Source of the DNA: Acidobacteriota bacterium
GTDB taxonomy: Bacteria > Acidobacteriota > Polarisedimenticolia > J045
Assembly: GCA_003696075.1 (NCBI GenBank)
Contig: RFHH01000119.1
Location: forward strand, 10,873 to 74,872
Direction: 5' to 3'
DNA: 64,000 nucleotides
The position numbers and the translations under genes are program-made. This document shows positions 2,710-49,949 of the stretch, in pieces. Below the pieces are notes generated by a model. It was not told the origin of the DNA. It did no database searches and saw only the letters and a list, made by a program, of their open reading frames with translations. Position 1 is the stretch's first letter. Each line of letters starts with the position of its first letter.

Positions 2710-2805
2710 CGTGACCTCACACCGCGTGCGACGCGCGGGAGCCGCGGCCCTGGTTCGAGTGTGCCACGGCGCCCCCGCTCCTGCCAGACGATCCGGAAGG
2801 GCCCG

Positions 2806-3237
2806 TCACCCGGAAACCTCGATCCGGCGAACCCGCGCCTCCTCGCGCTTCGGGATCGTGATCGTGAGCACCCCAGCTTCGTAGCCGGCGGTGATGCGGG
2901 ACGGATCGGCGCCGGGCGGCAGCCGGAAGCTGCGCCGGAACCGACCGGCCGGCCGCTCGGAACGCACGATGCCAGCGCCGTTCGCACGGGGACGCTCGCC
3001 GGTCAGCAGGAGCATCCCTCCCTCGACGCGCAGATCGATCGCCTCGCGCGGAACTCCGGGCAGGTCGGCCTCGATCACCACCGCGCTGTCGGTCTCACGG
3101 ACGTCGACGGGGGGGAGGAATTCCGCGGCGCGACGCCCGCGCCCTGGCAGGCCGAGCCCGTCCAGAATCCGGGTCAGGTCCTGCTCGAGGCCCGAGAGAA
3201 TCTCGAAGGGATGACGGCCCGTCTCGCTCGCACGCAT
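2806..3237 (-). CDS. Hsp20/alpha-crystallin family small heat shock protein
   Basis: 143 aa with an alpha-crystallin domain signature (VDVRETDSAVVIEADLPGV ... GVLTITIPK). It lies immediately upstream of lon on the same strand. Confidence 0.85.
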   Translation of the reverse strand: MRASETGRHPFEILSGLEQDLTRILDGLGLPGRGRRAAEFLPPVDVRETDSAVVIEADLPGVPREAIDLRVEGGMLLLTGERPRANGAGIVRSERPAGRFRRSFRLPPGADPSRITAGYEAGVLTITIPKREEARVRRIEVSG

Positions 3238-3304
3238 GGTCTTCGCTCCCGCCGGGATCCTGAAGATCCGGGCGCGCAGCTTCTAAGACCGGCGGCAAGC
3301 GCCG

Positions 3305-5389
3305 TCAAGACGCCCCGACGACGGCGTCGACGAGCTCGGGGGGAACAGGCCGGTAGTCGAACGGCTCCAGGGCGAACGTGCCGCGTCCCTGGGTGAGCGA
3401 GCGAAGGTCCGTCGAATAACCGAACATCGATCCCAGCGGAACGAATCCGCGGACCACCGCCTGCGTTCCCAGGACTCCGGTTTCGCGGATCTCCGCCCGG
3501 CGGGCCCCCAGGTCCTTGACCACCGCTCCCAGGAACTCCTCCGGAGCCCTGACCTCGAAGCGCATGATCGGCTCGAGCAGCACCGCCTCCGCCTTCTGGA
3601 AGGCGTGGCGCACGGCGAGCGAAAGGGCCGCTCCGAGGGGCACCGAGGGCTCCGGGGCATCGCCGAGCTCGAGCGCGGTCAAGGTGACCCGCACGTCGAT
3701 CACGGGAAAGCCGTGCGCGCCTCCCGCCTCGCACGCGGATCGCAGCGTGTCGGCGGCCTCCTCCCGCAGGGCCGGCGGGAGAAGCGCCGCGTGCGATCCG
3801 AGGTCGACCTCCACCGGGGGAAGCGAGCGATCGCCCGGGGGCCGGGGCCTCGGCGCCACCTCCACGGCGGCGCGGGCGAACAGGGCGACGTCGCCGACCC
3901 GCTTGTCGAACACGCCCTCCCCGGCGGCCGGCCCGCCGATCGTCTCGCGATAGGAGACGCGGGGTCGCCCGAACCGGGCGCGCACGCGGAAGTCGCGTTC
4001 CATCCGGTTGCGAATGACATCCAGGTGGAGCTCTCCCATTCCGGAGAAAATCAGCTCGCCCGTTTCCTCGTTCACGTGGCAGCGGAACGTCGGATCTTCC
4101 CGCTGGAGCCTGTCCACGACTTCGAGCAGCTTGTCCCGGTCCGCGGCCGTCCGGGCCTCGACGGCCACGGAAACGACCGTCTCCGGGAAGGTGATCTTCT
4201 CGTACGCGATGGGGTGATCGGGATCGCACAGGGTGTCGCCGGTGACGACGTCCTTGATCCCCATCGCGGCGACGATGTCGCCCGTCTCCGCGCGGTCCAC
4301 CGGCTCCGTCCGGTCGGCGAAGATCCTCAGCAGGCGCCGCAGCCGGAGCCTTTTCCCGGTCCGCGGGTTGAAGCAGCGGTCCTCGGTCCCCAGCGAACCC
4401 GAATAGACACGCAGCCAGTGGACGTCGGCGTTGGGCGTCGCGACGACCTTGCAGACCAGCGCGGAGAATGGCGCCGACGGATCCGGCGGGCGCGTCGCCG
4501 GCTCACCCGTCTTCGGGTCGATCCCGGCCGCGGGGGGCCGGTCGAGCGGGGATGGGAGGTAGTCGCACACCGCATCGAGGACGGGGCGGATACCGAGATC
4601 CTTGAGCGCCGCGCCGCAGAGGACCGGGACGAAACGCCCGGCGACCGTGGCCTCGCGAATCGCGCGGCGGAGCTCCTCCCCACTCACGGGCTCGTCGGCG
4701 AGGAACTTGTCGGCGAGCCAGTCCACGGCCTCGGCCACGCCGCAGACGAGCCTCTCGCGGGCGGCCTCGGCCGCCTCCCGCATCTCGGGGGGGATGTCCT
4801 CTTCCTCCAACTCCCGCCCGCGGGTCGCGGGATCGAAGACCAGGCGGCGCATGGAGAGCAGGTCGATCACCCCGTCGAGCTTGTCCTCGAGGCCGCAGGG
4901 GAGATTGATGAAGCAGGCATTCGCCCCCAGGACTTCGCGAATCTGTTCGAGCACCCGCTCGTGGTCGGCACCCACCCGGTCGAGCTTGTTGATGAACGCC
5001 AGCCTCGGGACGCGGTAACGGTCGGCCTGGTGCCAGACGGTCTCGCTCTGCGGCTCGACGCCTTCCACCCCGGAGAAGACGACGACAGCCCCGTCGAGGA
5101 CGCGAACGCTCCGCTCGACCTCGGCGGTGAAATCGACGTGCCCCGGGGTGTCGATCAGGTTGACCTGATGGCCGTTCCAGAGGAAGGTCGTCGCCGCCGC
5201 CTGGATGGTGATCCCGCGCTCCCGCTCCTGCTCGAGAAAGTCCATCGCCGCCTCCCCGCGATGGACCTCTCCGATCTTGTGGATCAAGCCGGCGTAGTAG
5301 AGGAAGCGCTCCGTGGTCGTCGTCTTGCCCGCGTCGATGTGCGCGATGATGCCGATGTTCCGGACCTTGTCTCGGGGTGCGCGCGACAC
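3305..5389 (-). CDS. fusA: Elongation factor G family GTPase (EF-G paralogue)
   Basis: 694 aa. G1 motif [17 protein letters not shown], and full EF-G domain II-V architecture. It is not in an str-operon context. Confidence 0.85.
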
Positions 5390-5539
5390 GGGTCGACCTC
5401 GCTCGGCTCGCAGGAATGACCGGCAAGTTAGCAGGGGGGCGAAAGTGCGTCAACGCGAAGCCGGCGCCTCCGGCCCGGCAGCCCGGCGTTCCGAAACCCG
5501 GGATCCACAACCGCTCGCCGCGGTTTTCCACATTGTGGG

Positions 5540-9981: not shown

Positions 9982-10995
9982 TCAGGCGGTAACGCCGGCG
10001 GGGAGCGCCCTGAAATGTTCCTCGATCGCGCCGATGAAGTCCTCGGGCCGTTCGAGCGCGGAGATCCGGCGCCGGAGCGCGTCCCCATCCGGCAAGCCCC
10101 GGGCGTAGCGGCCGGTGAAGGTCCTCAGCTTGTGCAGCGCCATCTTCGGCTCGTAGTCGCGGACGATCCACGCGAAGTGCGTCCGGATCAGCTCGAGCCG
10201 CTCCTCGGGCCGGGGCCTGCAGGGAGGCCTTCCGGCCAGGAGGTCGGCCGCCTCCCTGAAAATCCACGGGTTCTCCAGAACGGCACGCCCGATCATGACC
10301 CCGGCGCACCCCGTCTCCCTCAGCATCCGGAGCGCGGCGGCGGGAGAGTCCACGTCTCCGTTACCGATCACCGGTATCGACAGGGCCGCCGCCAGCCGGG
10401 CGATCGCTTCCCAGTCGGCGTGCCCCCGATACATCTGCCGGGCCGTCCGCGCGTGGAGCGTGACGGCGTCGGCCCCTTCGGATTCGCACATGCGGCCGAA
10501 CTCGAGATAGTTCACCGGCGTCGGTCCGGTTCCGATCCCGAGGCGGAACTTGACCGTGAGAGGGATCGTGAGCTCCCGCCGGCAGGCCCGGACGATGCTT
10601 GCCGCACGCTTGACGTCGCGCATCAGCGCCGCTCCCGCGCACCCTTTCAGAATCTTGTTCGCGGGGCAACCCATGTTGATGTCGCAGACATCCGGGCGGA
10701 GGCGTTCCACCACGCGGGCACAGGCCGCCATCTGTTCCGCGTCGCGCCCGTAGATCTGGATCGCGATCGGTCGCTCCTCCGTGGTGAACGTCAGCTTCTC
10801 GAGCTCCTTGCGGATCCCGCGGGCCACCTGCCCCGAGGAGACGAACTCCGCCGACACGAGGCCCACTCCGCCGATCCTTCTCACGAGCAGCCGGAAGTGG
10901 CGGTCGCAGATGCCGGCCATGGGAGCCAGCACGAGCGGCGGCCGCACCGTGAGCCCCCCGATCCGCAGCGCCGGGATCCCTCCACCCGCCGCCAT
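9982..10995 (-). CDS. dus: tRNA-dihydrouridine synthase
   Basis: LAPMAGICDRHFR, INMGCPANK (Dus catalytic Cys), and a TIM-barrel FMN signature. The start ATG overlaps the NUDIX stop (TGATG). Confidence 0.85.
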   Translation of the reverse strand: MAAGGGIPALRIGGLTVRPPLVLAPMAGICDRHFRLLVRRIGGVGLVSAEFVSSGQVARGIRKELEKLTFTTEERPIAIQIYGRDAEQMAACARVVERLRPDVCDINMGCPANKILKGCAGAALMRDVKRAASIVRACRRELTIPLTVKFRLGIGTGPTPVNYLEFGRMCESEGADAVTLHARTARQMYRGHADWEAIARLAAALSIPVIGNGDVDSPAAALRMLRETGCAGVMIGRAVLENPWIFREAADLLAGRPPCRPRPEERLELIRTHFAWIVRDYEPKMALHKLRTFTGRYARGLPDGDALRRRISALERPEDFIGAIEEHFRALPAGVTA

Positions 10996-27595: not shown

Positions 27596-28630
27596 TCAGC
27601 GGCTGGCGCCGGACCCCGCGCGAGTCCCTCCCAGCCAGGCCGACCAGTCTTCCGTCTCGCCGACCTGCACGGCGAGGATCTCGCCGTCCCCCGACACGAG
27701 GAACGACGTCGGGGTGCGGGTCACGAGGAGCGTCTTTCCGGCGGCGTTGCGGACGTCCAGCAGGTGTTTCCAGGGATAGGACTCGATCAGCGGAGCGGCC
27801 GCGCGGCGCAGCGCCTCGGCGTCGGCGCGGGCCACATCGACGACGACGAGATCGTCGGGACGGTGCTCTTCGTACCAGCGTCCGAGCACCGGAAGCGCCC
27901 GCTTGCAGTGGGGACAGATCGGAGACCAGTAGAAAAGCAGCAACCGCTTGCCGGGAACGAGGAAGTCGGTGAGCCGCCGCCAGGTGGAGCCGTCCAGCTC
28001 CGTGACCGCGACGCCCGGAAGCTTCGACCCGAGCAGCCGGTACGCCGGCTGGTACTCGAGGACACCGAGCGTGGGCACCGCCTTCCCCTTCGCAGCGAGC
28101 GCGAGCGCCTGCAGAATCGAAACGCCGTCCTTGTTGGCCTGCGAAATGTCGGAGCCGCCGACGAGCCGCAGAACGCCCCCGGCGTCGATGAGCGCGAACG
28201 AGGGAGCGCGGCGCACTCCGAGAACGACGGCCAGGTCGCCCCGGTCGATCACCGGCTCCACCGCCGACGCCAGCCCGAGCTCCTTCAGGCGCTCGGTCAC
28301 CGACGATTCCGGCTGGCCGGCAGCCAGCACCGCGACCGGCAGGACGGCCGCCTCGGGAGCCGCCTCCCGGGCGCCCGCGATCGCGTCGGCGAGGGCCGCC
28401 TCGGAGACGGGATCGCCCGGACGCCAGTAGACGACGAGCACGGGCCGCACGCCGAGGTACCCGGCCAACGCCTTGCCGGCCGGTCCGGCCTCGCGTTCCA
28501 GGACGGCGGCCGGCACCGCCTCCCCAGGCCGGGTGACGGGACGCGGCCCGCCCTGGGCGAACGCGGCGAGGCACGAAAACCCGGCGAGCAGCGATACGAG
28601 GACGGCGCCGCGAATTGTCTTCTTCGTCAT
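27596..28630 (-). CDS. Secreted thioredoxin-like (TlpA/redoxin) protein with tandem Trx-fold domains
   Basis: Signal peptide ([25 protein letters not shown]). The second domain has WSPICPHC (CxxC). The first domain lacks CxxC. Confidence 0.7.
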
Positions 28631-28695
28631 CGGGCGGCCATTATAGGGGCGGCTCAGCGCGGCCGCTCGGCCCCGCGCCCCGAGACCGACCGCCG

Positions 28696-29664
28696 ATGGA
28701 ACGCGAAACCGAAACCGGTGAAACCGTCGCCGCCCGTTTCAAGGTCGGTCCGGCCTTCGCCGGATGCCGGCTCGACCGGTTCCTGCAGCGCATGATCCCG
28801 AAGCTGTCGCGCACCCGTGTCCAGCGGGCGATCGCCACGCGCGTCGAGTTGTCGTGGGACGCGCCGGTGAAGCCGTCGACGCCCGTGCAAGTCGGCGGCA
28901 CCGTATCGCTGCTCGATCCCGGCATCGAGGAAGAGGAGATCGCCTTCGATCCACCGGTTCTCTACGAAGACCGGGATATCCTCGCCATCGACAAGCCACC
29001 GGGACTGGTGGTGCACCCCACCCACAGCCACCGGCGGAACACCGTCATCAGTCTGCTGCGCCGCCGGCGGGGGGAGCCCCAGCTCACCCTCGCCCACCGC
29101 CTGGACGCGGAGACCAGCGGCGTGCTTCTCCTCGGGCGCCACCGGTGGGCCGCGCGGCGCCTCCAAACGGCGTTCGAGCGGGCGCGTGTTTCGAAGACCT
29201 ACCTCGCCGTCGTCCGCGGAGCTCCGGCGGCCGACCGCTTTCGCATCGACCTTCCCCTGGGGACTTTCACCAGGGACGGCTTCATCTTCAGGCAGGGTCC
29301 GGAGGCGGAGCGAACGAAGAGCGCCCGGACCGAGGTGAGGGTCGTCCGGCGCCTTGCCGACCGGGCTCTCGTGGAGGTTCGCCCCGAGACGGGGCGGCGG
29401 CACCAGATCCGGGCTCACCTGGCCCTCGCCGGCCACCCGATCCTCGGCGACAAGCTCTACATGCTCCCCGACCGCGACTACCGCCGGCTCCTGCTGTACG
29501 GGAAGCTGCCCGAGGAAGCGGCGGCCCGCCTCGGCGCCGGCCGGCTGTTGCTCCACTCCTTCAGACTCGAGCTGGATCACCCGCGCGAGGGCGGCCGAAT
29601 CTCGCTCGAAGCGCCGATGCCGTCCGACATGCGGGAAGCCCTGCGCGGGGAGCCTTCGGCGTGA
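28696..29664 (+). CDS. RluA-family pseudouridine synthase
   Basis: [14 protein letters not shown] catalytic Asp motif. S4-like N-terminus. ATG 28696. Confidence 0.85.
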
Positions 29665-35387: not shown

Positions 35388-38009
<2,622 letters not shown>

Positions 38010-38048
38010 CGTTCACCTCTCCGAGTCATCGGCCTATCGGCACCGGCC

Positions 38049-38999
38049 TCAAGATCGCTCGAGCCGGGCGAGCTTCTCGTACAGTTCGCGCTGCTCTCGC
38101 GTCGGGTGCTTCGGCACCACGAGGCGGACTCGCGCAAGCAGATCGCCGCGCCCGCCGTCCTTCCGGGGAAGACCGCGGCCGCGCACGCGCAACGTCGTCC
38201 CCGTCGAAGTCCCGGGCGCGACACGGACTCTCACCGGGCGCTCGGGGGTCGGCACCTCCACGTGGCCGCCGACCACCGCGAGGGGTGCCGGGACGTCGAC
38301 CTCGGTCACGAGGTCGTCACCTTCGATGCGGAACGCCGGATCCGGGCGCAGCCGGATCTTCAGGTACAGATCTCCGCGGGGCGAGCCGGGCTGTCCCCCG
38401 CCGCCCATCCCGGGCAGGCGCAGCTTCTGTCCCGGCCGCAGTCCCGGAGGCAGGTTCACCGTCACGGTCTTCCGCTCCACCTTCCCGCCGGCTCCGGGAA
38501 CGCCCACCGTGATCCTGCGCGGACCCGGATGGAGCAGGTCGGACAGTCCGAACTCCACCTCCGCTTCGACGTCCCGGCCGCGCGGCCGGTGCGTGCGGGT
38601 GCGGCCGAAACCGCCCAGCCCCAGGTCACCGAAGAGGGTCTCGAAGAAATCGGAAAAGCCGCTTCCCCCGGCGCCGCCTCCGGCGGACCCGAAGATGTCG
38701 CCGAGATCCCCCATGCCGCCGACGTGGACGCGGAATCCCTCGAAGCCGGGAGGCGGCTCGAACGGAGCGCCGTGCTTCCAATTGGCGCCGAGCCGGTCGT
38801 AGCGGGCCCGCTTCTCGGGATCGCTGAGAACCTCGTAGGCCTCGTTGAGGTCCCGGAACTGCTCCTCCGCCCGGGGGGACTTGTTGACGTCCGGGTGGAG
38901 TTCGCGCGCCTTCCGGCGATAGGCGCGCTTGATCTCCTCGGTCGACGCCTTCCGGTCGACGCCCAGGATGGCGTAGTAGTCCTTGTAGGTCACGCTCAC
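38049..38999 (-). CDS. DnaJ-class co-chaperone (CbpA-like; J domain + C-terminal substrate-binding domains, no Zn finger)
   Basis: KDYYAILGV…HPD J-domain, a Gly-rich linker, and DnaJ_C beta domains. The start is approximate (GTG near VSVTYKDYY). Confidence 0.8.
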
Positions 39000-39630
39000 G
39001 ACGACGCCTCTCGATCGGTGGAGACCCGCCCGGGGCGGGCCGAGCGACCGCCGCGCCCCTTGTGGCATCGCGGGGCCCCCGGGTCAAGCGGCGCCGGCGC
39101 CCGGACGTTTCCGGGCAGCCGGCGCGAGTGCCCGAGAAATCGATGCGCCCGCAGGCGGCGCGGCCTCTTTCCGTTGGACGCGGGCGGCCTCCCGAAGCAG
39201 CGGCGGAGGGGGCTTTCGGCCGGCGGTCGGCTCGTCCGGCCCCCCGGCGGCCGGGCGTTCGTTCCGAGGTGCACCCGCGATGGTGCGTTTTCCTCTGCAA
39301 GTCGTTGTGGCTTGGGAGGTTCCGGCCGAACTCGCCGCTCGAGGAGTCAGGGCGCGCGGAAGCCACGGGTTTTCGCGGGACTGGGCGCCGGCGCGCACCG
39401 TCGCGGAAGCACCTTCCGCTCGCTGCGGCCCACCGGCGGGACGGGACGGAAGCGGAGGGCGGCGCCTCCGCCTTCGGCCCGCGGAGGGGGCGGTCGTCCC
39501 GCCCGCGCAGGATCCGGCCGGCCGATCCGCTGGGATCACCCCGGGAGACCGCCTTCCCGCTGGCGACCGCAACGAAGGCCGCCTTGCGCCGGCGGCCGTG
39601 CAGGATCACGCTTCGACGCCGGAGGAACCG

Positions 39631-40246: not shown

Positions 40247-41515
40247 ATGAGCCGCAGCAAGGTCGCCGTCCTCCAGACCCGCCCCCGCACCGTCTTCGCC
40301 GACTACCACCGCCTGATGAACCTCGCGGGGTACCAGGACGTCATCGACCGCTCAGCCGACACGGCACTCAAGATCAACATCTCGTGGCACTTCTTCTATC
40401 CGGCCAGCTCCACCACGCCCTGGCAGCTCGAGGGCGTGATCCGCGCGATGAAGGCCGACGGGTACGATCCGGCGTTGATCCACGGATGCCACAACCGGAC
40501 GGTCGTGATCGACGCCCACCTCGGGGAGCGCGAGAACAAGCACCTCGCGGTGCTCCAGGCGCACGGCCTGAGGAACATCCATCTCTACGAGGGCGAGGAG
40601 TGGATCCACATCAGAGATGCGGTCGGGGAGCTCGCCGACCGGTTCCTGTGCCTGAACGACGTCTATCCCCGAGGCTTCCACATCCCGAAGCGGTTCATCG
40701 GCGAGAACATCATCCACCTGCCGACGGTCAAGACCCACGTGTTCACCACGACCACCGGGGCGATGAAGAACGCCTTCGGAGGGCTGCTGAACGAGCACCG
40801 ACACTGGACGCACCCGGTGATCCACGAAACGCTCGTCGACCTTCTCATGATCCAGAAGAAGATCCACCGGGGGGTCTTCGCGGTGATGGACGGTACGTTC
40901 GCCGGGGACGGACCCGGGCCGCGGTGCATGGTGCCGCACGTGAAGAACGTGATCCTGGCATCCGCCGACCAGGTCGCGATCGACGCGGTGGCGGCGCGGA
41001 TGATGGGGTTCGACCCCCTCTCGATCAAGTACATCCGTCTCGCGCACGATCTGGGACTCGGATGCGGCGATCCGCGGGAGATCGAGATCGCCGGCGACGA
41101 GAGGGCCGCGGCACAGAACTGGCGCTTCGACGGACCGTACAAGCGAATGACCTTCGCTTCCCGCATGCAGCACAAGATCTACTGGGGCCCGCTGAAGAAA
41201 CCGGTCGAGTGGTCGCTGAAGACGGTGCTCGCGCCGTGGGCGTACGTTGCGAGCGTTCTGTACCACGACAGCTTCTGGTATCCGCTGAAGGCGAAGCGGA
41301 TGATGCGGGCGGCGCTCGACAGCGAGTGGGGGCGGCTGTTCCGGAACTGGGAAAAGCTGAGCCCCGACGAACTCGGCTTTCCCGAGGTCGGTGACGAACC
41401 GGCGGAGCTGGAGAAGACGGGGCTGCGCGCTCTTCGCCAATCGCTCGGGATCCTCGCCACCTGTCTCCGGGAGGCCCCGGAGTTCGCCGCGCGACGGCGA
41501 GCCCGCGGGCGCTGA
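40247..41515 (+). CDS. DUF362 domain-containing protein
   Basis: MSRSKVAVLQTRP… The conserved DUF362 core is present throughout. The family call is from memory. Confidence 0.7.
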   Translation: MSRSKVAVLQTRPRTVFADYHRLMNLAGYQDVIDRSADTALKINISWHFFYPASSTTPWQLEGVIRAMKADGYDPALIHGCHNRTVVIDAHLGERENKHLAVLQAHGLRNIHLYEGEEWIHIRDAVGELADRFLCLNDVYPRGFHIPKRFIGENIIHLPTVKTHVFTTTTGAMKNAFGGLLNEHRHWTHPVIHETLVDLLMIQKKIHRGVFAVMDGTFAGDGPGPRCMVPHVKNVILASADQVAIDAVAARMMGFDPLSIKYIRLAHDLGLGCGDPREIEIAGDERAAAQNWRFDGPYKRMTFASRMQHKIYWGPLKKPVEWSLKTVLAPWAYVASVLYHDSFWYPLKAKRMMRAALDSEWGRLFRNWEKLSPDELGFPEVGDEPAELEKTGLRALRQSLGILATCLREAPEFAARRRARGR

Positions 41516-41678
41516 CGAGCGCCGCGCTCCGGCAATTCCCTCCGCGGCGGTGGGGATCCCTCTTTCCCCGCAGCCGGCACCGCGTTCGCACCGCCGCGGG
41601 GACACCCGGGGCCGGTTTGCAGCTTCGCGCGTCTTCGCGGTACCCTCCGGCGGCTCCCGAGCCGTCCGGAAGGCGCCG

Positions 41679-44600
41679 ATGACCCTCAAACTGCCCACCC
41701 TTCCGCGCCAGCTCTTGCCGGCCGCCCTGGCGTCGCTCATCGTCGTGCCGCCCGCTGCAGGCGGGCCGCCGGCGGCGCTCGTCAGGGACCTCCGGTCGCC
41801 AGAAACCGCGGGATCGGGCGTTTCCTCCTTCCCCCACGATCTCGTCCGCTTCGGCTCGATCGTTCTGTTCGCCGCCGAGGACCCGGCGCACGGTAGCGAG
41901 CTGTGGCGGACCGACGGCACGCCCGGCGGGACGGAGTTGGTTCTGGACATCCAGGCGGGAGCGGGAAGCGGCTCCCCGACGAACCTCACGGTCGCCGGCG
42001 GCGCCGTCTACTTCACCGCGGACGACGGAGTTCACGGTCGCGAACTGTGGGTCAGCGACGGCACCGCCGCGGGAACGCGGATGGTGGCCGACATCGCGCC
42101 GGGACTCGCGGGTTCGCGGCCCGAAGCGCTCTTCTCCGACGGCACGCGCCTCTTCTTCGCGGCCGACGACGGGCTCCACGGCCAGGAGCTGTTCGTGACC
42201 GACGGAACGGCGGGCGGGACCGTACTGCTGGCCGACATCGCGGCCGGTACGGAGACGTCCTTTCCGCGGCCGCTCGGAGCCGCCGGCGGTCTCCTCTACT
42301 TCGCCGCCACCGAGAGGTCCGCTGCCGGCGTTTCTCCCGCCGGCACGGGACGCGAACTGTGGGTGACCGACGGGACGCCGGAGGGCACGCGGCTCGTCAA
42401 GGACATCGATCCAGGGGAGGCCTCTTCCTCGCCGGCCGGTTTCGCCCTGGCGGGCGGGCTCGTCCTGTTCAGCGCGGACGACGGCACCCACGGCCGGGAG
42501 CCCTGGGTCACGGACGGGACCGAGGCGGGCACGCACCTCCTTCTCGACGTCAATCCGCCGCAGGAAGGCGACGAGGCGCGCGGTTCCGATCCGCGGGAGT
42601 TTTTCCCCTTCGCCGGGATCGTGCTCTTCTCGGCCTTCCGCGACGAAGACGGCCGCGAGCTGTGGCGAACCGACGGCACCGCCGCCGGGACCTTCCCGGT
42701 GGCCGACATCGCTCCCGGAACGGATTCCTCGTCGCCGTTCGGCTTCACCGCCGCGGGCGGGTTCGTCTACTTCTCCGCCGCGGACCCGAACCACGGGCGC
42801 GAGCTGTGGCGAACCGACGGCACGCCGGGGGGAACGGCGCTCGTCGCCGACGTCGGCCGCGGGGCGGGTGCCGCTCCGGGGGCTGCCGACCCGCTCGACG
42901 GCGATCCGGGACAGCTCACCCCGCTCGGCGATGGGATCCTCTTCGCCGCCACCGACGAGGCGCACGGGCGGGAGCCCTGGTTCGCCGACGGCGCCGGCGC
43001 CGTCCTCCTCGCCGACGTCCGGCCGGGCGCGGCCGGGAGCGATCCCGTCGTGCTCGCCGCGGCCGGGAGTGCCGTCTATTTCGCCGCCGGGGAAGGTGGG
43101 GATGGCCGGACGCTGTGGCGCTCCGACGGCACGCCCGCAGGCACGGGCCCGGTCCCGACCCCCTTTCCGCCGCCCCTCGGGCCCGATACCGCGGTGGCCC
43201 TCGGCGAGCTGTTGATCTTCGTCGCCGACGACGGTGTCTCCGGGCGGGAGCCATGGGTGTTCGATCCGGCGGCCCCTCAGTCCGAGCGGTTGGCCGACAT
43301 CGCCGGAGAGGACGGTTCCCTCCCGATCCCTCTTCTGTTCACCGAGGTGGTGCGCACGGGCGAGACCGAGCCGGTCGAGCAGCTGTTCTTCTCCGCCGAC
43401 GACGGGCTCCACGGCCGCGAGCTATGGGCCACCTTCGGCACCCCGTCCGGGACGTCGCTGTTCGCGGACATCGATCCCGGCGCGCCGCCCTCGACGCCCG
43501 CGGACCTCACCCTGTTCACCGCCGACGGGGGGGACCGGATCGTGCTCCGGGCTCACTCGGAGGCGCTGGGCGAGGAACCGTACGCCGTGGTCCTCGCGAC
43601 CCAGGTTCTCGTCCCGCTGGGCGATCTCCGGCCGATCAGCGGCCTCGGCTCGAAACCGCGCGAGTTCACCCCCTCGGGCGGCTCGATCTTCTTCAGCGCG
43701 GACGACGGCATCCACGGCCGGGAACTGTGGCGGAGCGACGGGACGGCGGACGGAACCGCGCTGGTGGCCGACATCGGGCGTGACGGCACCGGGAGCGATC
43801 CCGATCCCCATGGCTCCGATCCGGCGGACCTGACGAGCGCCGCCGGACTCCTGTTCTTCGCTGCAGAGGATCCGGGCGCTGGCCGCGAGCTCTGGATCAC
43901 CGACGGCACGGAGGCGGGAACGCGGAGGGTGAAGGACATCGAACCGGGTCCCGGCTCCTCCTCGCCGCACGACCTCACCGCGCTGGGGAATCTCGTCCTG
44001 TTCGCCGCGAGCACGACGGACGCGGGCGAGGAGCTCTGGGCGAGCGACGGGACGGAGGCCGGAACGGCGCGACTGGCGGACATCGCTCCCGGCGCGGCGG
44101 GCTCCTCCCCGAGGATCCTGCTGACGGCAGGGAATCACGCCTATTTCAGCGCCGACGACGGGACGCACGGGCGCGAGCTCTATGTCACCGACGGAACGAG
44201 CACCGGAACCGTCTTCCTCGGCGATCTCGAGCCCGGCACCGGCGGCTCCGACCCGGCGGGGCTGTTCGACCTCTCCCGCGACGGCACCGAGCGCGTCCTC
44301 TTCACCGCCTGGACGTCCGCGGAGGGTCGCGAGCTGTGGGCGACCGACGGGACCCCGGCCGGTACGTCGCTCCTCGCCGACATCGCAGCGGGGCCGGCCT
44401 CCTCCGATCCGGCCGGGATGACGCTCCTGGACGCCTCGGCGCTGTTCAGCGCGGACGACGGCCTGCACGGCCGCGAGCCGTGGGTCACCGACGGGACCGC
44501 CGCGGGAACCTCCCTCGTCGCGGACATCTCCCCCGGGGCGGCGTCGTCCATGGCCGCCGGGGCGGCGTCCTTCGCCGCCGCGGGCGGGCGAGCCTTCTTC

Positions 44601-45116
44601 GCCGCGGACGACGGGGTGAGCGGGGCCGAGCCGTGGTCGACCGACGGGACGAATGCCGGAACGGAGCTGGTGCAGGACATCGCACCCGGCCCGGCCGGAT
44701 CGGCGCCGGCTCGTTTCCTGGCGGGCCGGACGCGCGTCTTCTTCTCGGCGGACGACGGCACGCACGGCCGGGAACTGTGGGCGATCGACCTGTGTTCCTA
44801 CCCGTCGTCGGGGGATTGCGACGGCGACGGCGTGCCGAACCAGGCGGACAACTGCCCGAGGACCCCGAACGCGGACCAGCTGGATTTCGACGCCGATGGG
44901 GCCGGCGACGCCTGCGAGTCGGGCGCCTCCGCAGCGGACGCCGACCGATCGGGTCGCGTCGACGGGTACGACCTCGCCGCCCTCGGGAGGGCGTTCGGCG
45001 CCGCCGCGGGAGATCCCCGTTACGATCCGACGGTCGATCTCGACCGGAACGGATTCGTGGACGGAGAGGATCTCGCCCTTTTCGCCCCCGAGTTCGGCGC
45101 GGAGGTGGAGCCATGA
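41679..45116 (+). CDS. ELWxxDGT-repeat surface protein with C-terminal thrombospondin type-3 repeats and type-I dockerin
   Basis: GGAAGG Shine-Dalgarno sequence. Signal-like N-terminus. About 19 tandem ~50-55 aa repeats (G[RQ]ELW[RV]TDGT..GT.LV.DI.PG…S.P). The C-terminus has DCDGDGVPNQADNCPRTPNADQLDFDADGAGDAC, then DADRSGRVDGYDLAAL… and DLDRNGFVDGEDLALF (two Ca-binding dockerin segments). Confidence 0.85.
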   Translation: MTLKLPTLPRQLLPAALASLIVVPPAAGGPPAALVRDLRSPETAGSGVSSFPHDLVRFGSIVLFAAEDPAHGSELWRTDGTPGGTELVLDIQAGAGSGSPTNLTVAGGAVYFTADDGVHGRELWVSDGTAAGTRMVADIAPGLAGSRPEALFSDGTRLFFAADDGLHGQELFVTDGTAGGTVLLADIAAGTETSFPRPLGAAGGLLYFAATERSAAGVSPAGTGRELWVTDGTPEGTRLVKDIDPGEASSSPAGFALAGGLVLFSADDGTHGREPWVTDGTEAGTHLLLDVNPPQEGDEARGSDPREFFPFAGIVLFSAFRDEDGRELWRTDGTAAGTFPVADIAPGTDSSSPFGFTAAGGFVYFSAADPNHGRELWRTDGTPGGTALVADVGRGAGAAPGAADPLDGDPGQLTPLGDGILFAATDEAHGREPWFADGAGAVLLADVRPGAAGSDPVVLAAAGSAVYFAAGEGGDGRTLWRSDGTPAGTGPVPTPFPPPLGPDTAVALGELLIFVADDGVSGREPWVFDPAAPQSERLADIAGEDGSLPIPLLFTEVVRTGETEPVEQLFFSADDGLHGRELWATFGTPSGTSLFADIDPGAPPSTPADLTLFTADGGDRIVLRAHSEALGEEPYAVVLATQVLVPLGDLRPISGLGSKPREFTPSGGSIFFSADDGIHGRELWRSDGTADGTALVADIGRDGTGSDPDPHGSDPADLTSAAGLLFFAAEDPGAGRELWITDGTEAGTRRVKDIEPGPGSSSPHDLTALGNLVLFAASTTDAGEELWASDGTEAGTARLADIAPGAAGSSPRILLTAGNHAYFSADDGTHGRELYVTDGTSTGTVFLGDLEPGTGGSDPAGLFDLSRDGTERVLFTAWTSAEGRELWATDGTPAGTSLLADIAAGPASSDPAGMTLLDASALFSADDGLHGREPWVTDGTAAGTSLVADISPGAASSMAAGAASFAAAGGRAFFAADDGVSGAEPWSTDGTNAGTELVQDIAPGPAGSAPARFLAGRTRVFFSADDGTHGRELWAIDLCSYPSSGDCDGDGVPNQADNCPRTPNADQLDFDADGAGDACESGASAADADRSGRVDGYDLAALGRAFGAAAGDPRYDPTVDLDRNGFVDGEDLALFAPEFGAEVEP
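41880..44790 (+). repeat. Intragenic tandem coding repeats (~150-165 bp units, ELWxxDGT)
   Basis: Recurrent cacggccgcgagctgtgg…gacggcac blocks at roughly 150-165 bp periodicity inside CDS 41679..45116. Confidence 0.8.
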
Positions 45117-45754
45117 CAACGCGGAACGGCGGCGAGTTCGCCCGGGTGCGGCTCGCCCGCCCGCTGCTGGCGGCGGTGGCGGCCGTCATGGTGGGGACCG
45201 GTCTCCTCGCGACGGGGTGCCACGAAGCCCCGCCGGATATCCTCTTCGAATCCCCGCTCACCACCTTCTTCACGGAAAGCTCCACTCCGGATGCCCCGGA
45301 TCTCGTCCGGCTGCGCGGGGAGGTCATCGACAACCAGACCGTTCTGGTTGAAGTCGTCGTCACCGGTCCGACCACCAGCTCCGACATCTACTCGTTCGCT
45401 TTCGACCTGCTGTTCAGCGGCGATCTCACCCCGCAGTACGTGTCCGGATCGGCCGAGGCGGGTGATTTCCTCACGGCCGGACCGGGCCAGGACGTCGTCG
45501 CCCAGGTGAGTCAATCGGGGGCGCGCCTGACCGTCGGGGTGACGAAGACGGGCGGTGGTCCGGGCAACGGCCTGGGGGCGGGACAGGCCACGGTGGTGAG
45601 CTTCCGCGTCACCCTCCCGGAAGCGGGCCGGGCGGCGATCCGCTTCGCGGCCGATCCCCAGGGACGCGCTCCCGCCGCCCTCGATCCCTCGGGAAATCCG
45701 GTGCCGTCGATCGTGTTCGACGGCGAACCGGCGGTCATCGCGCGGCAGGCGTGA
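45113..45754 (+). CDS. Cohesin-like domain lipoprotein
   Basis: ATG overlaps the upstream stop (ATGA). Lipobox LLATGC. IYSFAFDLLFSGDL…AEAGDFL and LTVGVT… resemble the cohesin beta-sandwich core. Confidence 0.55.
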   Translation: MTTRNGGEFARVRLARPLLAAVAAVMVGTGLLATGCHEAPPDILFESPLTTFFTESSTPDAPDLVRLRGEVIDNQTVLVEVVVTGPTTSSDIYSFAFDLLFSGDLTPQYVSGSAEAGDFLTAGPGQDVVAQVSQSGARLTVGVTKTGGGPGNGLGAGQATVVSFRVTLPEAGRAAIRFAADPQGRAPAALDPSGNPVPSIVFDGEPAVIARQA

Positions 45755-46635
45755 GGGCTCACGGGACGCCGCGCGGGTTCGGACCGGCCGCCGGGGCGGT
45801 GCTCGCGATCGTCCTGGTCTCGGTGGGATGCGCGACCACGGGGCCTCCCGGCGTTCCTCCCGGCGCTCGCCCGCTCTCCCCCCCGCCCCGCGAGCCGGCC
45901 GGCGAGGGCGGCTCACGCGTGGGCGGCCCGCCGGGGGAGGTGCCGCGTCCCGCGGGACGCGGTTCGGAGGCGCCCGCGCCGCCGGAGGCCGGGGAACCCG
46001 CCCGGACGAACGAGGGATCCGGAAAAGACTCCGCCCCCGGCGGACCCGGCCGAGCCGGCTTCGTCGCGGCCGTCCCCCCGGACTCCCCCGCGGAGGTTCC
46101 CGCGGCGGGCGAAGCGGCGGAGCCGCTCGCCCCGAGCCGCGAGCCACCGGAGCGGGAGCCGCCGGAACACGCTCGCGAGCCAGCGGCGCCGCAGGAGTCC
46201 CCGGGCCCGGAACCGGGTGCGGAGACGGCGATCCTCGTCGTCCCCGAGCCCGCGGAGGTTGCCCCCGGGGAAATCGTCACGCTGAGCGTGCGCCTCGCCG
46301 CGGCGGTCGAGGTGTCGAGCGTCCCCCTTCTCGTGCGGTTCGATCCCCGGATCGTGTCGTTTCTCGACGCGGCCGAGGGAGATTTCCTCCGCCGGGACGG
46401 CGCCCCCACCGCGTTTCTGGCGTCGCTCGACTCGTCCGGCCGCGCGGTGGTGGTGGGAAACTCGCGACTCGGCCGCCGGCCGGGGCTGTCGGGAGACGGA
46501 GAGGTCTGCCGGCTCCGTTTCCGCGCGCTGGCCTCCGGTGATCCGGCGTTCTCCGTCCCCCGGGCGAACGTGAGGGCCGCGGGCGGCGCCGTCGTGGCGG
46601 CCGAGCTCACCGTCCTGCCCGCACGGGTGCGCTGA
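45751..46635 (+). CDS. Cohesin-like domain lipoprotein (second copy, Pro/Glu-rich linker)
   Basis: GTG overlaps the upstream stop (GTGA). Signal and lipobox (LVSVGC). A long PE-rich low-complexity linker. The C-terminal domain GEIVTLSVRLAAAVEVSSVPLLVRFDPRIVSFLDAAEGDFL matches the cohesin pattern (…YDP..LE.V….GDFL). Confidence 0.6.
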   Translation: MRAHGTPRGFGPAAGAVLAIVLVSVGCATTGPPGVPPGARPLSPPPREPAGEGGSRVGGPPGEVPRPAGRGSEAPAPPEAGEPARTNEGSGKDSAPGGPGRAGFVAAVPPDSPAEVPAAGEAAEPLAPSREPPEREPPEHAREPAAPQESPGPEPGAETAILVVPEPAEVAPGEIVTLSVRLAAAVEVSSVPLLVRFDPRIVSFLDAAEGDFLRRDGAPTAFLASLDSSGRAVVVGNSRLGRRPGLSGDGEVCRLRFRALASGDPAFSVPRANVRAAGGAVVAAELTVLPARVR

Positions 46636-46687
46636 CCGCGGTATGATGCTTCCGGTCGCCCGGTGCTCCGGGCGAGGGGAGGTCTCC

Positions 46688-47440
46688 ATGATCGCCGTCG
46701 GCAGCGAAGCGCCAGCCTTCACCCTTCAGGACCAGTTCGGGCGCACCATCGATTCGAAGAAGATCCTGGAAACGCGGCACCTCATGCTCTTGTTCTACCC
46801 GCTCGACTTCACCCCCACGTGAAGCCGGGAGGTGCCGGCGGTCCAAGCGCGGCTCGCGCGCTTCGAGGCCGCCCACACCCAGGTTCTGGGTGTCAGCGTC
46901 GACAGCATCTACTGCCACGCCAACTGGGCACGGAGTCTCGGAGGCATTTCGTTCCCCCTGCTGGCCGATTTCCACCCGAAAGGCGACGTGGCGCGCCGTT
47001 TCGGGCTCTACCTCGAGGACAAGGGGATCACGGACCGGGCGACCGTGATCGTCTCGCGCGACGGCATCGTGCGGTTCGCGGAATCGGTGACGCCCGCGGG
47101 CGAACGCGACATCGACGCGCTCGTGGCCGAATGCGAGCGGATCGACCGCGAGCACCCGGGCGGGGAACCCCCGGCACGCCGCCGACTCCCCGACGGTTCG
47201 GTGCTCTTCGTGAAGACCGGCTGCCCCTTCTGCCGTTGGGTGCTCGCTGCGCGGGAGAACCTCGGGCTCACCGAGTCGCTGCCCGTGCGGAACGTCTCGG
47301 AGGACCCGCAGGCGCGCGCCGAGCTGGAGCGCATCGCCGGCCGGACCCAGGTGCCGTGCCTCGTGAGGGAGGGCGAGCCGATGCACGAGTCGGCCGAGAT
47401 CGCTCGCTTCCTCGCCGAACTCGCCGCACCCGTCCACTGA
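46688..47440 (+). CDS. Selenocysteine-containing peroxiredoxin (BCP/PrxQ-like) fused to glutaredoxin; in-frame TGA at 46820-46822
   Basis: GGGGAGG Shine-Dalgarno sequence, ATG 46688. The translation MIAVGSEAPAFTLQDQFGRTIDSKKILETRHLMLLFYPLDFTPT-[TGA]-SREVPAVQARL… aligns to the Prx motif FYPxDFTPxC, with TGA at the peroxidatic Cys. The downstream ORF is in the same frame and continues the Prx fold. The C-terminus carries a Grx domain with CPFC. Confidence 0.7.
46837..46873 (+). promoter_or_regulatory. Putative SECIS-like stem-loop 15 nt downstream of the in-frame UGA
   Basis: GGCGG-UCC-AAGCGCG-GCUCG-CGCGCUU-CGAGG-CCGCC forms a bipartite hairpin (5 bp + 7 bp stems, 5-nt apical loop). A smaller alternative hairpin, GCCGG-GAGGUG-CCGGC, lies at 46824-46839. 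Confidence 0.4.
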
Positions 47441-47510: not shown

Positions 47511-49949
47511 TCAGGAGAACTGGCGCAGCGTCTCGGCCATCTGCGACAGCCGCCGCGAGACCCGATCGCCCAGGCTTCCGGCCGGCCACGTGCCGTTCTC
47601 GTCCGGCGCACCGAACGGAATGCCGGCGAGCAGACCCATCAACTCCGCCACGCTGTCCACCGGGTGGATGCGGAATTTGCCCGCCGCGATGTCGTCGACC
47701 ACCTCGGGCGAAAGCTGGAGGTAGGCCACGCACGACGATGGGATGATCACGCCCGGCCGCCCCCGGAACCCCCGCTCGCGGCACGCCCGCCAGAAGCCCT
47801 CGATCTTCTCGTTGATACCGCCCACGGCGAGCACGTTCCCGTGCTGGTCCACCGCACCTGTGACCGCGAGGTCCTGCCGCAGCGGTTGATTCGAGAGGGC
47901 GGAGAGCAGCGCGGCGAGTTCGGCCGACGACGCCGAGTCTCCCTCCACGCCGCCATAGGACTGCTCGAAGCAGATGCTCGCGGTGACCGACAGCGGGAGG
48001 CGTCGCGCGAACTGGGAACGGAGATACCCCGCCAGGATCAGCGAAGCCTTGGTGTGGATCTCCCCCGACAGATCCGCTTCCCTTTCGACGTCGATCACCC
48101 CTTCGTCCCCAACGGCCACGGTGGCGGTGATGCGCACGGGGTAGCCCAGCCGTTCCAGTTTCGTCTGCACGACGGCGAGCGCGTTCACCTGGCCCACCGC
48201 CGTGCCCTCGAGATCCAGCTTGAGCACCCCTTCCCGGATCGCGTCCTGAATGCGTCCCGACAGGAGGCCCTGCCGCTCGCGCCGGGCTCGCAGCGCCCGC
48301 TCGACATCCTGCATCTCCACCCGGCCGACCCCCCGCTCCCGCGCGAACCAGGTGGCCTCCCGCGCCAGGTCCAACATCTCGCGGAAGCGCGTCGACAACC
48401 GGTGGCGGCTGTCGGCCAGCCTGACCATGTACTCCATGATCCGTGCGACACCGTCCCGGGAGATCGGCAGGAGGTCCTCCTCCTTCACGACGCGCGCGAG
48501 GAAGCACGCGTAGGAGTAGACCATCTCGGCGGTCAGCGGGACCCGGTCGTCGAACAGCGCGGTCACCTTGAACAGCTTGGAGAACTCCTCGTCGCCGCTA
48601 TGGAGCAGATCGTGAGTGCCGACCGTTCCGACGAGGACCACGGTGACATCGATCGGGATCGGCTCGGGAAGGAGCACCGGCGGCCCCTCGGAGGCGTTGC
48701 CGCTGACCGGGGTGACGCTGTTGGTGAGCATGGACCTCCGGAGCGCCGGCCACGCCCCCTCTTCCGACAGCAGCTCCCTCGCGTTCAGGACGAGATAGCC
48801 GCCGTCGGCGCGGTGCAGGGCCCCGGGACGGATGCTCGACAGGCCCGCCTGCAGGCCCCCTTCCGGCGTCCGCCGAGCTTCGACCACACCGCACAGGCGG
48901 GGCGCGGTGGGATCCACCTCCTCCACCAGGGGCCGTCCGTCCTCCTCGGCCCGGTCGACCAGAAGGTTCACGCGGAGCACGTCGAGCGGGCTGAATGGCG
49001 TGCCCTCGCCCGGTTGCGTGCGGACCGCCTCCCCCTGGGCGTAGAGAACCGGGAAGATCTCCAGAAGGTAGTTCTCGACGTCGGCGAGGAAGCGGTCCAG
49101 ACCCGGCCGCTCTCCCTCCTCCAGTCCCACCGCCTCTCGGATTCCGCCGACGATCTCCTTGATCGCCGGAACGGCCGCCTGCCGGTCGAACTCCGCCACC
49201 GCGCGTTCGAGCTCGCGGCCCAGCGCCTGGAGCTTCGCCGTTTCGCGCGAAAGGCGCGCGGCGAGCTCCGGATGCCTCCGGCGCAAGCGCTCCGCCTCCT
49301 CGGCGGGGATGACGCCCTCGTGGACCTTGCCGTCCAGCTCTCCCATGGAGACGGGTTCCCCCCCGACGACCGGGGCGAGCTCGTGCCGCCGGAAGTTGCC
49401 CAGATTCACCTCGACGAGGGCGAAGCCCTCCTTTTCGACCTCCGTCTGGAAGTCCTTGATGATCCGGCTCTGCTGCTGCTGGAACCGGCGGGCGATCATC
49501 TGCCGCCGCTTCCTGTGCGTCTGGGAGCCTCGAAGGGCGAGAAGGCCGTGCTGGAAGCGCTCGATCGCGGCGTCGAGCGCCGCTCTCAATCTCCGGCCCG
49601 CCCCGGCGGGGAGCCGGAGCGCGCGCGGCGATCTCGGATCGGCGAAGTTGTGCACGTAGCACAGGTCGTCCGGGACGGGCCCCTTCTTCCGCACCTCCTG
49701 GAGGACGCGCCTGACCGTGGATGTCCGGCCGGTGCCCGGGAGCCCGGCTACGTAGACGTTGTAGCCGCGTGCCCTCAGACTGGCCGCCAATCGCACCGCG
49801 TCGACAGCCTTCGGCTGGTCGTAGGCGCTGGCGCAGTCGCCGAGCTCGGCCGTGGTCTCGAACGGCAGCCACTCCGCGGGACAGCGCCAGGCCACCTGGT
49901 CGGCCGTCAGGGAACGTTCGAGCGGTTCCGGTCCTCGGCTCACGGGCAA
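47511..49949 (-). CDS. LonC-like protease (AAA+-like domain with degenerate Walker A + S16 Lon proteolytic domain)
   Basis: 812 aa. GLPGTGRTS (Lys replaced by Arg in Walker A). The C-terminal Lon protease domain has a Ser-Lys dyad region (…EQSYGGVEGDSASSAELAALLSAL…). Confidence 0.8.
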   Translation of the reverse strand: MPVSRGPEPLERSLTADQVAWRCPAEWLPFETTAELGDCASAYDQPKAVDAVRLAASLRARGYNVYVAGLPGTGRTSTVRRVLQEVRKKGPVPDDLCYVHNFADPRSPRALRLPAGAGRRLRAALDAAIERFQHGLLALRGSQTHRKRRQMIARRFQQQQSRIIKDFQTEVEKEGFALVEVNLGNFRRHELAPVVGGEPVSMGELDGKVHEGVIPAEEAERLRRRHPELAARLSRETAKLQALGRELERAVAEFDRQAAVPAIKEIVGGIREAVGLEEGERPGLDRFLADVENYLLEIFPVLYAQGEAVRTQPGEGTPFSPLDVLRVNLLVDRAEEDGRPLVEEVDPTAPRLCGVVEARRTPEGGLQAGLSSIRPGALHRADGGYLVLNARELLSEEGAWPALRRSMLTNSVTPVSGNASEGPPVLLPEPIPIDVTVVLVGTVGTHDLLHSGDEEFSKLFKVTALFDDRVPLTAEMVYSYACFLARVVKEEDLLPISRDGVARIMEYMVRLADSRHRLSTRFREMLDLAREATWFARERGVGRVEMQDVERALRARRERQGLLSGRIQDAIREGVLKLDLEGTAVGQVNALAVVQTKLERLGYPVRITATVAVGDEGVIDVEREADLSGEIHTKASLILAGYLRSQFARRLPLSVTASICFEQSYGGVEGDSASSAELAALLSALSNQPLRQDLAVTGAVDQHGNVLAVGGINEKIEGFWRACRERGFRGRPGVIIPSSCVAYLQLSPEVVDDIAAGKFRIHPVDSVAELMGLLAGIPFGAPDENGTWPAGSLGDRVSRRLSQMAETLRQFS

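Follow-up and report, generated by a model that had tools for sequence, protein, structure and literature searches.

We describe here a gene on a 64,000-nucleotide stretch of DNA from an Acidobacteriota bacterium (positions 10,873 to 74,872 of contig RFHH01000119.1, assembly GCA_003696075.1; hereafter the window). The gene, at positions 46688-47440 on the + strand, almost certainly encodes a 250-residue selenoprotein, a peroxide-detoxifying enzyme with a catalytic selenocysteine (Sec) and its own glutaredoxin-like recycling domain. The sequence, read directly, is a single 250-codon frame with an ATG at 46688, an in-frame TGA at 46820-46822 and a stop codon at 47438-47440. The internal TGA follows 44 sense codons, which end ...LLFYPLDFTPT, and precedes 205 more sense codons that run up to the stop. 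The features of the locus, in order along the DNA, are:

46678..46682, + strand: Shine-Dalgarno-like GGAGG, 5 nucleotides (nt) 5' of ATG 46688, read from the sequence

46688..46819, + strand: codons 1-44 (Met1-Thr44) of the coding sequence, with the peroxiredoxin active-site lead-in P38-x-x-x-T42-P-T; from translation, with the AhpC-TSA match running from residue 4

46697..47077, + strand: AhpE-like peroxiredoxin domain, residues 4-130; Pfam AhpC-TSA, with AhpE as the best match

46820..46822, + strand: in-frame TGA, the predicted Sec codon (U45) at the peroxidatic position, from comparison of this column in orthologues

46823..47437, + strand: remaining 205 codons of the coding sequence (Ser46-His250), from translation

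46832..46876, + strand: stem-loop inside the coding sequence resembling a selenocysteine insertion sequence (SECIS); minimum free energy fold, core helix 46837-46873

46913..46915, + strand: Cys76 (SVDSIYCHANW), mostly confined to Sec forms, with a possible resolving or auxiliary role

47132..47134, + strand: Cys149, at the end of the peroxiredoxin domain, mostly conserved in the two-domain relatives

47201..47428, + strand: thioredoxin-fold domain of the glutaredoxin or glutathione S-transferase N-terminal (GST-N) type, residues 172-247; Pfam and an AlphaFold2 (AF2) model of the homologue P0003

47222..47233, + strand: active-site motif C179-P-F-C182, of which only Cys179 is conserved in the family

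47354..47359, + strand: cis-Pro-type Pro223 and Cys224 (APCLV), both invariant in the aligned two-domain relatives, Sec and Cys forms alike

47438..47440, + strand: true stop codon, TGA, from the sequence; TGA is the usual terminator in the window

A mechanical list of open reading frames (ORFs) splits the gene into two, 46643..46822 and 46832..47440. The deposited protein, RMG45414.1 (D6718_07620, annotated as a 'hypothetical protein' in an Acidobacteria metagenome-assembled genome, or MAG), is likewise the 202-residue product that begins at the GTG at 46832. The initial annotation of this DNA had drawn attention to a Shine-Dalgarno sequence ahead of ATG 46688, to two halves sharing one frame across the TGA, and to a downstream ORF that opens at a GTG within the peroxiredoxin (Prx) core, all of which we reproduce. 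Orthologues share the start residue of the window gene, beginning MI(A/E/D)VG, and for this reason the upstream ATG at 46643 was rejected as a start. The window has a G+C content of 71%, and position 46820 is the sole junction within its 64 kb at which a plausible coding signal stands on both sides of a TGA (G+C at third codon positions, GC3, of 0.88 and 0.84); a scan of the window for other genes with an in-frame TGA gave no convincing case. Neither a sigma-70 promoter nor an intrinsic terminator was predicted around the gene.

The orthologues are informative about how the TGA is read. A homologue search of 5.8 billion proteins returned the downstream ORF itself, RMG45414.1 (P0001). Of the best 120 homologues, around 115 have a length of 197-208 residues and align with only 75-81% of the query, and are thus cut at the same point as the window ORF; on the contigs of two homologues a separately called AhpC-TSA mini-ORF of 44-45 residues lies just upstream. 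We read the codon at the peroxidatic column in 164 related loci from reference genomes and metagenomes. Among the 43 genes that combine a Prx and a glutaredoxin (Grx)-like domain, hereafter fusions, this codon is TGA in 42 and TGC in one (L165, from Armatimonadota). The complete stand-alone relatives of about 150 residues (n=108) divide into 50 with TGA and 58 with TGC or TGT, and Cys occupies the column in more distant relatives. Fusions are carried by Acidobacteriota (Thermoanaerobaculia, Holophagae), Sulfomarinibacteraceae, Eiseniibacteriota, Myxococcota/delta-proteobacteria and Planctomycetota, and span at least five phyla. These data agree with the earlier proposal of a Sec codon at the peroxidatic position. 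They include both of the residues that the initial annotation had suggested looking for in this column, Cys and Sec, and no case of a genuine stop followed by a conserved restart: the restarts called after the TGA differ among orthologues (MPAVEA, MEALL, VPAVEA).

The codons on both sides of the TGA are under equal purifying selection, the median ratio of nonsynonymous to synonymous substitution rates (dN/dS) between orthologue pairs being 0.216 for the 44 codons that precede the TGA and 0.234 for the 99 that follow. An alternative genetic code is ruled out, and the organism taken to use the standard code, because TGA terminates 30 of the 33 well-supported (high-GC3) ORFs in the window, the selenoprotein gene included. 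The Trp recorded at the Sec column of one homologue (P0033) was also ruled out, since the DNA has TGA there and the residue is an artefact of calling the gene with code 4. This entry (L166, 190-933) is a call from a JGI metagenome, evidently made in code 4, that presents the selenoprotein as a 'full-length' Trp protein.

Some of these relatives deserve separate description. The only fusion with TGC for which DNA is available in the main set, at L165 3853-4629 (Armatimonadota, P0007), retains a hairpin of 15 bp where the SECIS lies in Sec forms and has lost the Grx-domain Cys (TGRS), which suggests a recent replacement of Sec by Cys and subsequent decay of the recycling site; an extra 152-residue AhpC-TSA gene lies directly downstream on the opposite strand. 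A Sulfomarinibacteraceae locus (L024, 6001-6870) has TGA at the Sec column and a middle part that is frameshifted relative to all others, and is either a pseudogene or affected by indel errors of long-read assembly. One Holophagae MAG (MFD09964.bin.1.228) carries two Sec-containing fusions on different contigs (L008 and L019), and the gene is therefore duplicated in some genomes. TGA is likewise the peroxidatic codon in at least three more subfamilies of stand-alone AhpE-like proteins: '...DFTPTU[ST].E' forms in Binatia and Planctomycetota (L021-L031, L049, L111-L122), '...DWTPVUTVQMP' forms in Thermoanaerobaculia/Acidobacteriota from soils (L041-L046, L056, L060, L138-L161), and '...DFT[DN]TU / DFSGGU' forms in Chloroflexota (L036, L052, L065, L068, L129-L135, L160). 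Because these stand-alone subfamilies also carry TGA, the use of Sec in this Prx clade is far broader than the fusion.

The RNA that follows the UGA folds into a stem-loop whose stem starts about 12-17 nt downstream and whose apical loop, GCUCG at 46852-46856, begins 29 nt after the UGA. Since the region is coding and GC-rich, we judged this hairpin against three controls. The first compared a 63-nt window with 200 synonymous recodings that keep the protein and the codon usage of the gene: the window copy has a folding energy of -36.9 kcal/mol against -22.9 kcal/mol for the recodings (z -4.03), and 0 of 200 recodings is as stable. The second set Sec forms against Cys forms. The recoding z averages -1.91 in the former (n=40) and -0.58 in the latter (n=38), with a Mann-Whitney p of 5.6e-7, a value that overstates the independence of the comparison because the sequences are related. 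The position of the main hairpin separates the two groups as well, its loop lying 20-31 nt (median 28) past the UGA in 83 of 83 unique Sec forms and being scattered over 8-51 nt in Cys forms. The third control is internal to the gene. Of the 66 windows in the window gene, the one after the UGA is the most stable; in 34 fusions it takes one of the first three ranks in 41% of cases, against a chance expectation of a few per cent. Across the same 34 fusion sequences the chosen stem register gives 78% paired cells, as against 40-53% when the partner strand is slid. We infer that this SECIS-like stem-loop directs the reading of the UGA as Sec.

A Pfam search with the translation, in which Cys replaced the TGA, matched AhpC-TSA in one stretch that spans the TGA, from residue 4 to residue 130 (E 1.1e-31, 109.8 bits against a cut-off of 26), so that the two halves align as a single Prx domain. 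The catalytic set is complete, comprising Pro38, Thr42, Sec45 and Arg117 (CGG, 47036-47038), and Arg117 is invariant. The arrangement P38...T42-P-T-U45 fits the PxxxTxxU motif described for Sec-containing peroxiredoxins (PMC13188914). The nearest protein of solved structure is Mycobacterium tuberculosis AhpE (Rv2238c; E 6e-26 over residues 1-141), followed by 2-Cys Prx (1e-19) and BCP (1.4e-17, 2cx3), and a Foldseek search with the model of a Cys-form homologue also placed AhpE first (1xxu, 37% identity). The stand-alone relatives are 153-159 residues long. By sequence and fold, then, the Prx domain appears closest to the AhpE subfamily, which is of the 1-Cys type; this label reflects the nearest match and not the cut-off of a curated model. 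The BCP/PrxQ context proposed in the initial annotation is not supported, the corresponding models scoring far below their cut-offs (45.4 bits against 140 for PRK09437, and 37.8 against 260 for PrxQ, NF053650), with AhpE closer both by sequence and by fold. The best NCBIfam match is PrxU (NF040737, a Sec-containing thioredoxin-dependent Prx) and, at 75.8 bits, lies so far under its cut-off of 270 that no curated NCBIfam family covers the protein.

Two further Cys residues associated with the Prx domain are of mechanistic interest. Cys76 is present in nearly all Sec fusions (34 of 36), in fewer of the Sec stand-alone forms (13 of 43) and in few of the Cys forms (8 of 60). Cys149 is nearly invariant in alignment A4; in the fusions it is Cys in 16 of 19 and Ala in 3 of 19, and stand-alone Sec forms mostly have Ala. 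The earlier statement that no resolving Cys follows the UGA was accordingly too strong.

The C-terminal domain matches three Pfam families above their gathering scores, GST_N_2 (3.3e-13; 50.5 bits against 25), Glutaredoxin (5.6e-10, residues 172-230; 39.7 bits against 22.9) and GST_N_3 (7.1e-9), and fits GST_N_2 better than Glutaredoxin. It is only distantly related to Grx and GST-N domains of solved structure (best E 0.006). The AF2 model, which was made for the Cys-form homologue P0003, gives this domain a confidence score (pLDDT) of 85-98 and a beta-alpha-beta ... alpha-beta-beta-alpha topology. The Grx-type assignment in the initial annotation is thus sound, with two amendments: the GST-N family is the better fit, and the CPFC motif given there is peculiar to the window copy. 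Over the 43 fusions the motif is CMFS in 20, CGFS in 10, CGAS in 5, CGHS in 2 and CPFC in 1, the other five being CSAS, CMAS, CGPS, TGRS (the Cys form L165, which has no Cys here) and one mis-hit of the search expression. The family motif is C-[MG]-[FA]-S. Cys179 is invariant in all Sec fusions and the second Cys of the motif is dispensable, a pattern that fits a monothiol mechanism. Downstream of Pro223-Cys224 a Glu-Ser pair (HES, residues 233-235) is also conserved, and presumably corresponds to the site that binds the gamma-glutamyl group of glutathione in GST-N and Grx domains. The Grx-domain Cys has been lost in two fusions of the Cys form, P0007/L165 and P0034, and this loss ties Cys179 to the chemistry of Sec.

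The best explanation of the locus as a whole, and in our judgement a very probable one, is a UGA-Sec selenoprotein gene that functions as follows. The UGA at 46820-46822 would be read as Sec under the direction of the stem-loop within the coding sequence, as in bacterial SelB/SECIS recoding. Sec45, in an AhpE-like active site of the 1-Cys type, would be oxidised by peroxide to a selenenic acid, a step that we infer, like Sec insertion itself and the recycling route, here from the Prx family. Recycling could then take either of two routes. A low-molecular-weight thiol such as glutathione may form Sec-Se-SG, from which Cys179 would remove the thiol; or Cys179 may attack directly to give an Se-S bond, which a thiol would then resolve. 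To judge from domain identity and residue conservation, the chances are about even that the fused monothiol Grx/GST-N-type domain is what recycles Sec45. There is a parallel in AhpE with mycothiol and mycoredoxin-1 (Mrx1), where the form that Mrx1 reduces is either AhpE-SOH itself or AhpE-SSM (PMC4360819). Most likely Sec45 would regain its selenol state by way of a selenenylsulfide in which a low-molecular-weight thiol and Cys179 take part, a chemistry that would mirror that of AhpE/mycoredoxin-1 and of the Prx5-Grx hybrids, built here into one chain with Sec.

Several observations weigh against this explanation, some touching Sec insertion and some the recycling step. Covariation in the hairpin is weak and not significant over 34 fusions (both partners change in only 6 cells, and the observed score is equalled or exceeded by 68 of 500 shuffles), so the case for the hairpin rests on the recoding, Sec-versus-Cys and within-gene controls. 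RNAalifold found no consensus structure in 27 mixed Sec forms, as the subfamilies differ by 1-2 nt in stem register, and the hairpins of a few orthologues (L010, L011, L018) are weak. A G in the first two positions of the apical loop is a feature cited for bacterial SECIS elements (PMC1088965); the window hairpin loop, GCUCG, does begin with G, and a G at these positions occurs in only 38 of 83 Sec forms, no more commonly than in Cys forms. None of selA, selB, selC and selD was found in the 64 kb window, where a Pfam scan of 30 ORFs gave no SelA, SelB or SelD match. A tRNA-Sec was found neither in the window, whose only tRNA in an Rfam search is a tRNA-Gly, nor in the flanks of 41 related loci, which also gave no selA, selB or selD. 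A tblastn search of 1.17 Mb of flanks with an Escherichia coli SelD sequence returned nothing, which is uninformative since sel genes need not be linked. In favour of Sec insertion, on the other hand, selenoproteins have been recorded from Acidobacteria, and the myxobacterium Anaeromyxobacter has three Sec-peroxiredoxins on record (PMC1794560). As to recycling, Cys76 or Cys149 could resolve the selenenic acid instead of the Grx-like domain. The P0003 model has an overall pLDDT of 77, and less than 50 in the Prx core; it cannot tell whether Sec45 and Cys179 come within reach of each other, and given the low confidence of the core we draw no conclusions from it about contacts between the domains.

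The alternative that survives best accepts the Sec-containing Prx and denies that the Grx-like domain is its reductant. We consider it a real possibility, though less likely than not. On this account Cys76 or Cys149 would resolve and an external thioredoxin would reduce the enzyme, leaving the C-terminal domain to bind glutathione for protection or regulation, or to relay oxidation to a partner. The concentration of Cys76 in Sec fusions and its rarity in Cys forms would be explained in this way, as would the retention of Cys149 in most fusions, and the NCBIfam name of PrxU, a known Sec-containing Prx, describes it as thioredoxin-dependent. A Grx domain is absent from the stand-alone Sec forms of about 154 residues, and for them an external reductant must therefore exist. 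Set against these points, Cys179 is invariant in all Sec fusions and Cys224 in every aligned fusion, the Cys forms P0007/L165 and P0034 no longer have Cys179, Cys149 is replaced by Ala in some fusions, and a Prx fused to its own Grx reductant has a precedent (1nm3).

Much less probable is that the UGA is recoded to an amino acid other than Sec, for instance to Cys by a tRNA-Sec-like tRNA with SelB or to Trp, Cys or Arg by near-cognate read-through. Natural systems that recode from Sec to Cys exist, Cys would also yield an active Prx, and the absence of Sec machinery from the window and from the flanks of related loci is as this alternative would have it. A TGC codon would suffice for Cys, though, as it does in many Cys homologues; a TGA with a positioned hairpin held across five phyla is the signature of Sec; and the sole 'Trp' homologue is the gene-calling artefact noted above. 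The weakest alternative, that the TGA is a real stop and the locus a pseudogene or a split or decayed Prx (a 44-residue fragment and a 202-residue protein), has in its favour that all annotation pipelines call the locus so and that a GTG stands at 46832, three codons past the TGA, but is effectively already refuted by conservation, a stop with downstream restart being untenable given the conserved TGA, the equal constraint on the first 44 codons and the rest, and the standard code, and being weakened further because the called restarts fall at differing residues, the GGAGG at 46827-46831 abuts the GTG with zero spacer, the 202-residue product would have neither a peroxidatic residue nor strands one and two of the Prx fold, and the same 'mutation' in nearly every orthologue across phyla is not decay.

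The selenoprotein gene is flanked by a Pro/Ala-rich ORF of secreted appearance (45751-46635, + strand) and by a convergent gene for a LonC-like protease (47511-49949, - strand). The neighbours differ in other genomes and there is thus no conserved operon. The upstream ORF is one of two on the + strand (about 45117-45754 and 45751-46635) that are Pro/Ala/Gly-rich, with N-termini like those of lipoproteins or signal peptides and with C-terminal halves that resemble each other; 52 nt separate the end of the second from ATG 46688, and its co-transcription with the selenoprotein gene is possible. Preceding them is a 1241-residue ORF (41391-45116, + strand) with about 20 tandem degenerate 'HGxELWxTDGTxxGT...' repeats and, at its C-terminal end, Asp-rich motifs of calcium-binding type (DxDxDGxxDxCD, DxNGxVDGxD); from its sequence it looks like a large secreted repeat protein of the beta-propeller type. 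Genes for proteostasis and the heat-shock response abound in the window; they include Lon (265-2805), Hsp20 (2806-3282), ClpB (35388-38012) and DnaJ (38049-39083) together with the LonC/LonB-like protease next to the selenoprotein gene, and fall in the regions 265-5449, 35388-39083 and 47511-49949. A second protein of the redoxin family is encoded at 27596-28738 (- strand); it has about 345 residues, a signal-peptide-like N-terminus, a TlpA/ResA-like Redoxin domain and the CxxC motif SPICPHC, and is unrelated to the Sec-containing Prx.

Sec-containing peroxiredoxins have been known since 2001. The window protein shares with members of this family, such as PrxU of Eubacterium acidaminophilum and the Prx of marine metagenomes, the AhpC-TSA fold, Sec in place of the peroxidatic Cys, the P-x-x-x-T-x-x-U motif, a hairpin within the ORF after the UGA and widespread Cys homologues. 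It differs from PrxU in being no orthologue of it (75.8 against 270 bits), in its AhpE-like Prx domain and in its C-terminal Grx/GST-N-type domain. Sec-containing Prx with the TxxU motif is an established selenoprotein family (PMC1088965, PMC13188914). In the Global Ocean Sampling (GOS) study the listed fusions of such proteins are with a PP2C-like phosphatase, and none is with Grx. AhpE (Rv2238c) is the nearest relative of solved structure by sequence and fold and, like our protein on the proposed mechanism, is recycled by a Grx-like partner and a low-molecular-weight thiol. AhpE, however, has Cys and not Sec, is a stand-alone protein of 153 residues, and has its Grx-like reductant, Mrx1, encoded by a separate gene.

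A known parallel in domain organisation is PGdx of Haemophilus influenzae (HI0572, 1nm3), in which an N-terminal Prx is likewise followed by a Grx-type domain on a single polypeptide of about 240-250 residues, and with which, by analogy, glutathione-dependent recycling by the fused domain may be expected to be shared. The Prx of PGdx is of the Prx5 type with Cys, whereas that of the window protein is AhpE-like, and the Grx motif of PGdx is the dithiol CPYC, whereas that of our family is the monothiol C-x-x-S. The structural alignment to 1nm3 has 14-15% identity with a root-mean-square deviation (rmsd) of 12-13 Å, and the C-terminal domains match at an E-value of 0.59, so that the window protein falls outside the PGdx family; given this low similarity, the fusion looks independent of PGdx. 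Sec-containing glutathione peroxidase (GPx) may be regarded as a functional analogue, since it too is a peroxidase with a selenol, which a thiol regenerates by way of a selenenylsulfide. Its active-site architecture is unrelated (UxxT motif, GPx family), and the resemblance would be in chemistry only.

What lies at this locus is a real selenoprotein gene whose two precedents, Sec-containing Prx and Cys-containing Prx-Grx hybrids, are each known, and whose combination of the two we have not found described. A search of the full-text literature, incomplete in coverage so that an earlier description is possible, found no account of a Sec-containing Prx-Grx fusion, and such a fusion is absent from the table of prokaryotic selenoprotein families in a 2026 review. 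We tentatively propose, at somewhat less than even confidence, that the fusions form an undescribed and phylogenetically broad family in which an AhpE-type selenoperoxiredoxin is permanently fused to a monothiol Grx/GST-N domain. This family would be a self-contained analogue of glutathione peroxidase on a Prx scaffold, independent of the Prx5-Grx hybrids and hidden in databases by truncation of every copy at the UGA. Hundreds of database entries, RMG45414.1 among them, are truncated at the 5' end at the Sec codon and are without the catalytic residue, a defect that would be mended by a family model in which an exception is made for Sec. The carriers belong to lineages whose thiol redox systems have been little studied (Acidobacteriota, Myxococcota, Planctomycetota and Eiseniibacteriota). 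The protein offers a natural single-chain system for comparing Sec with Cys in Prx, for which there are natural Cys forms lacking the Grx-domain Cys as well, and it allows the recycling of an AhpE-type enzyme through a selenenylsulfide by a tethered monothiol Grx to be tested. Alongside PGdx it would be a second, independent fusion of Prx to Grx, and the first that we could find with selenocysteine.

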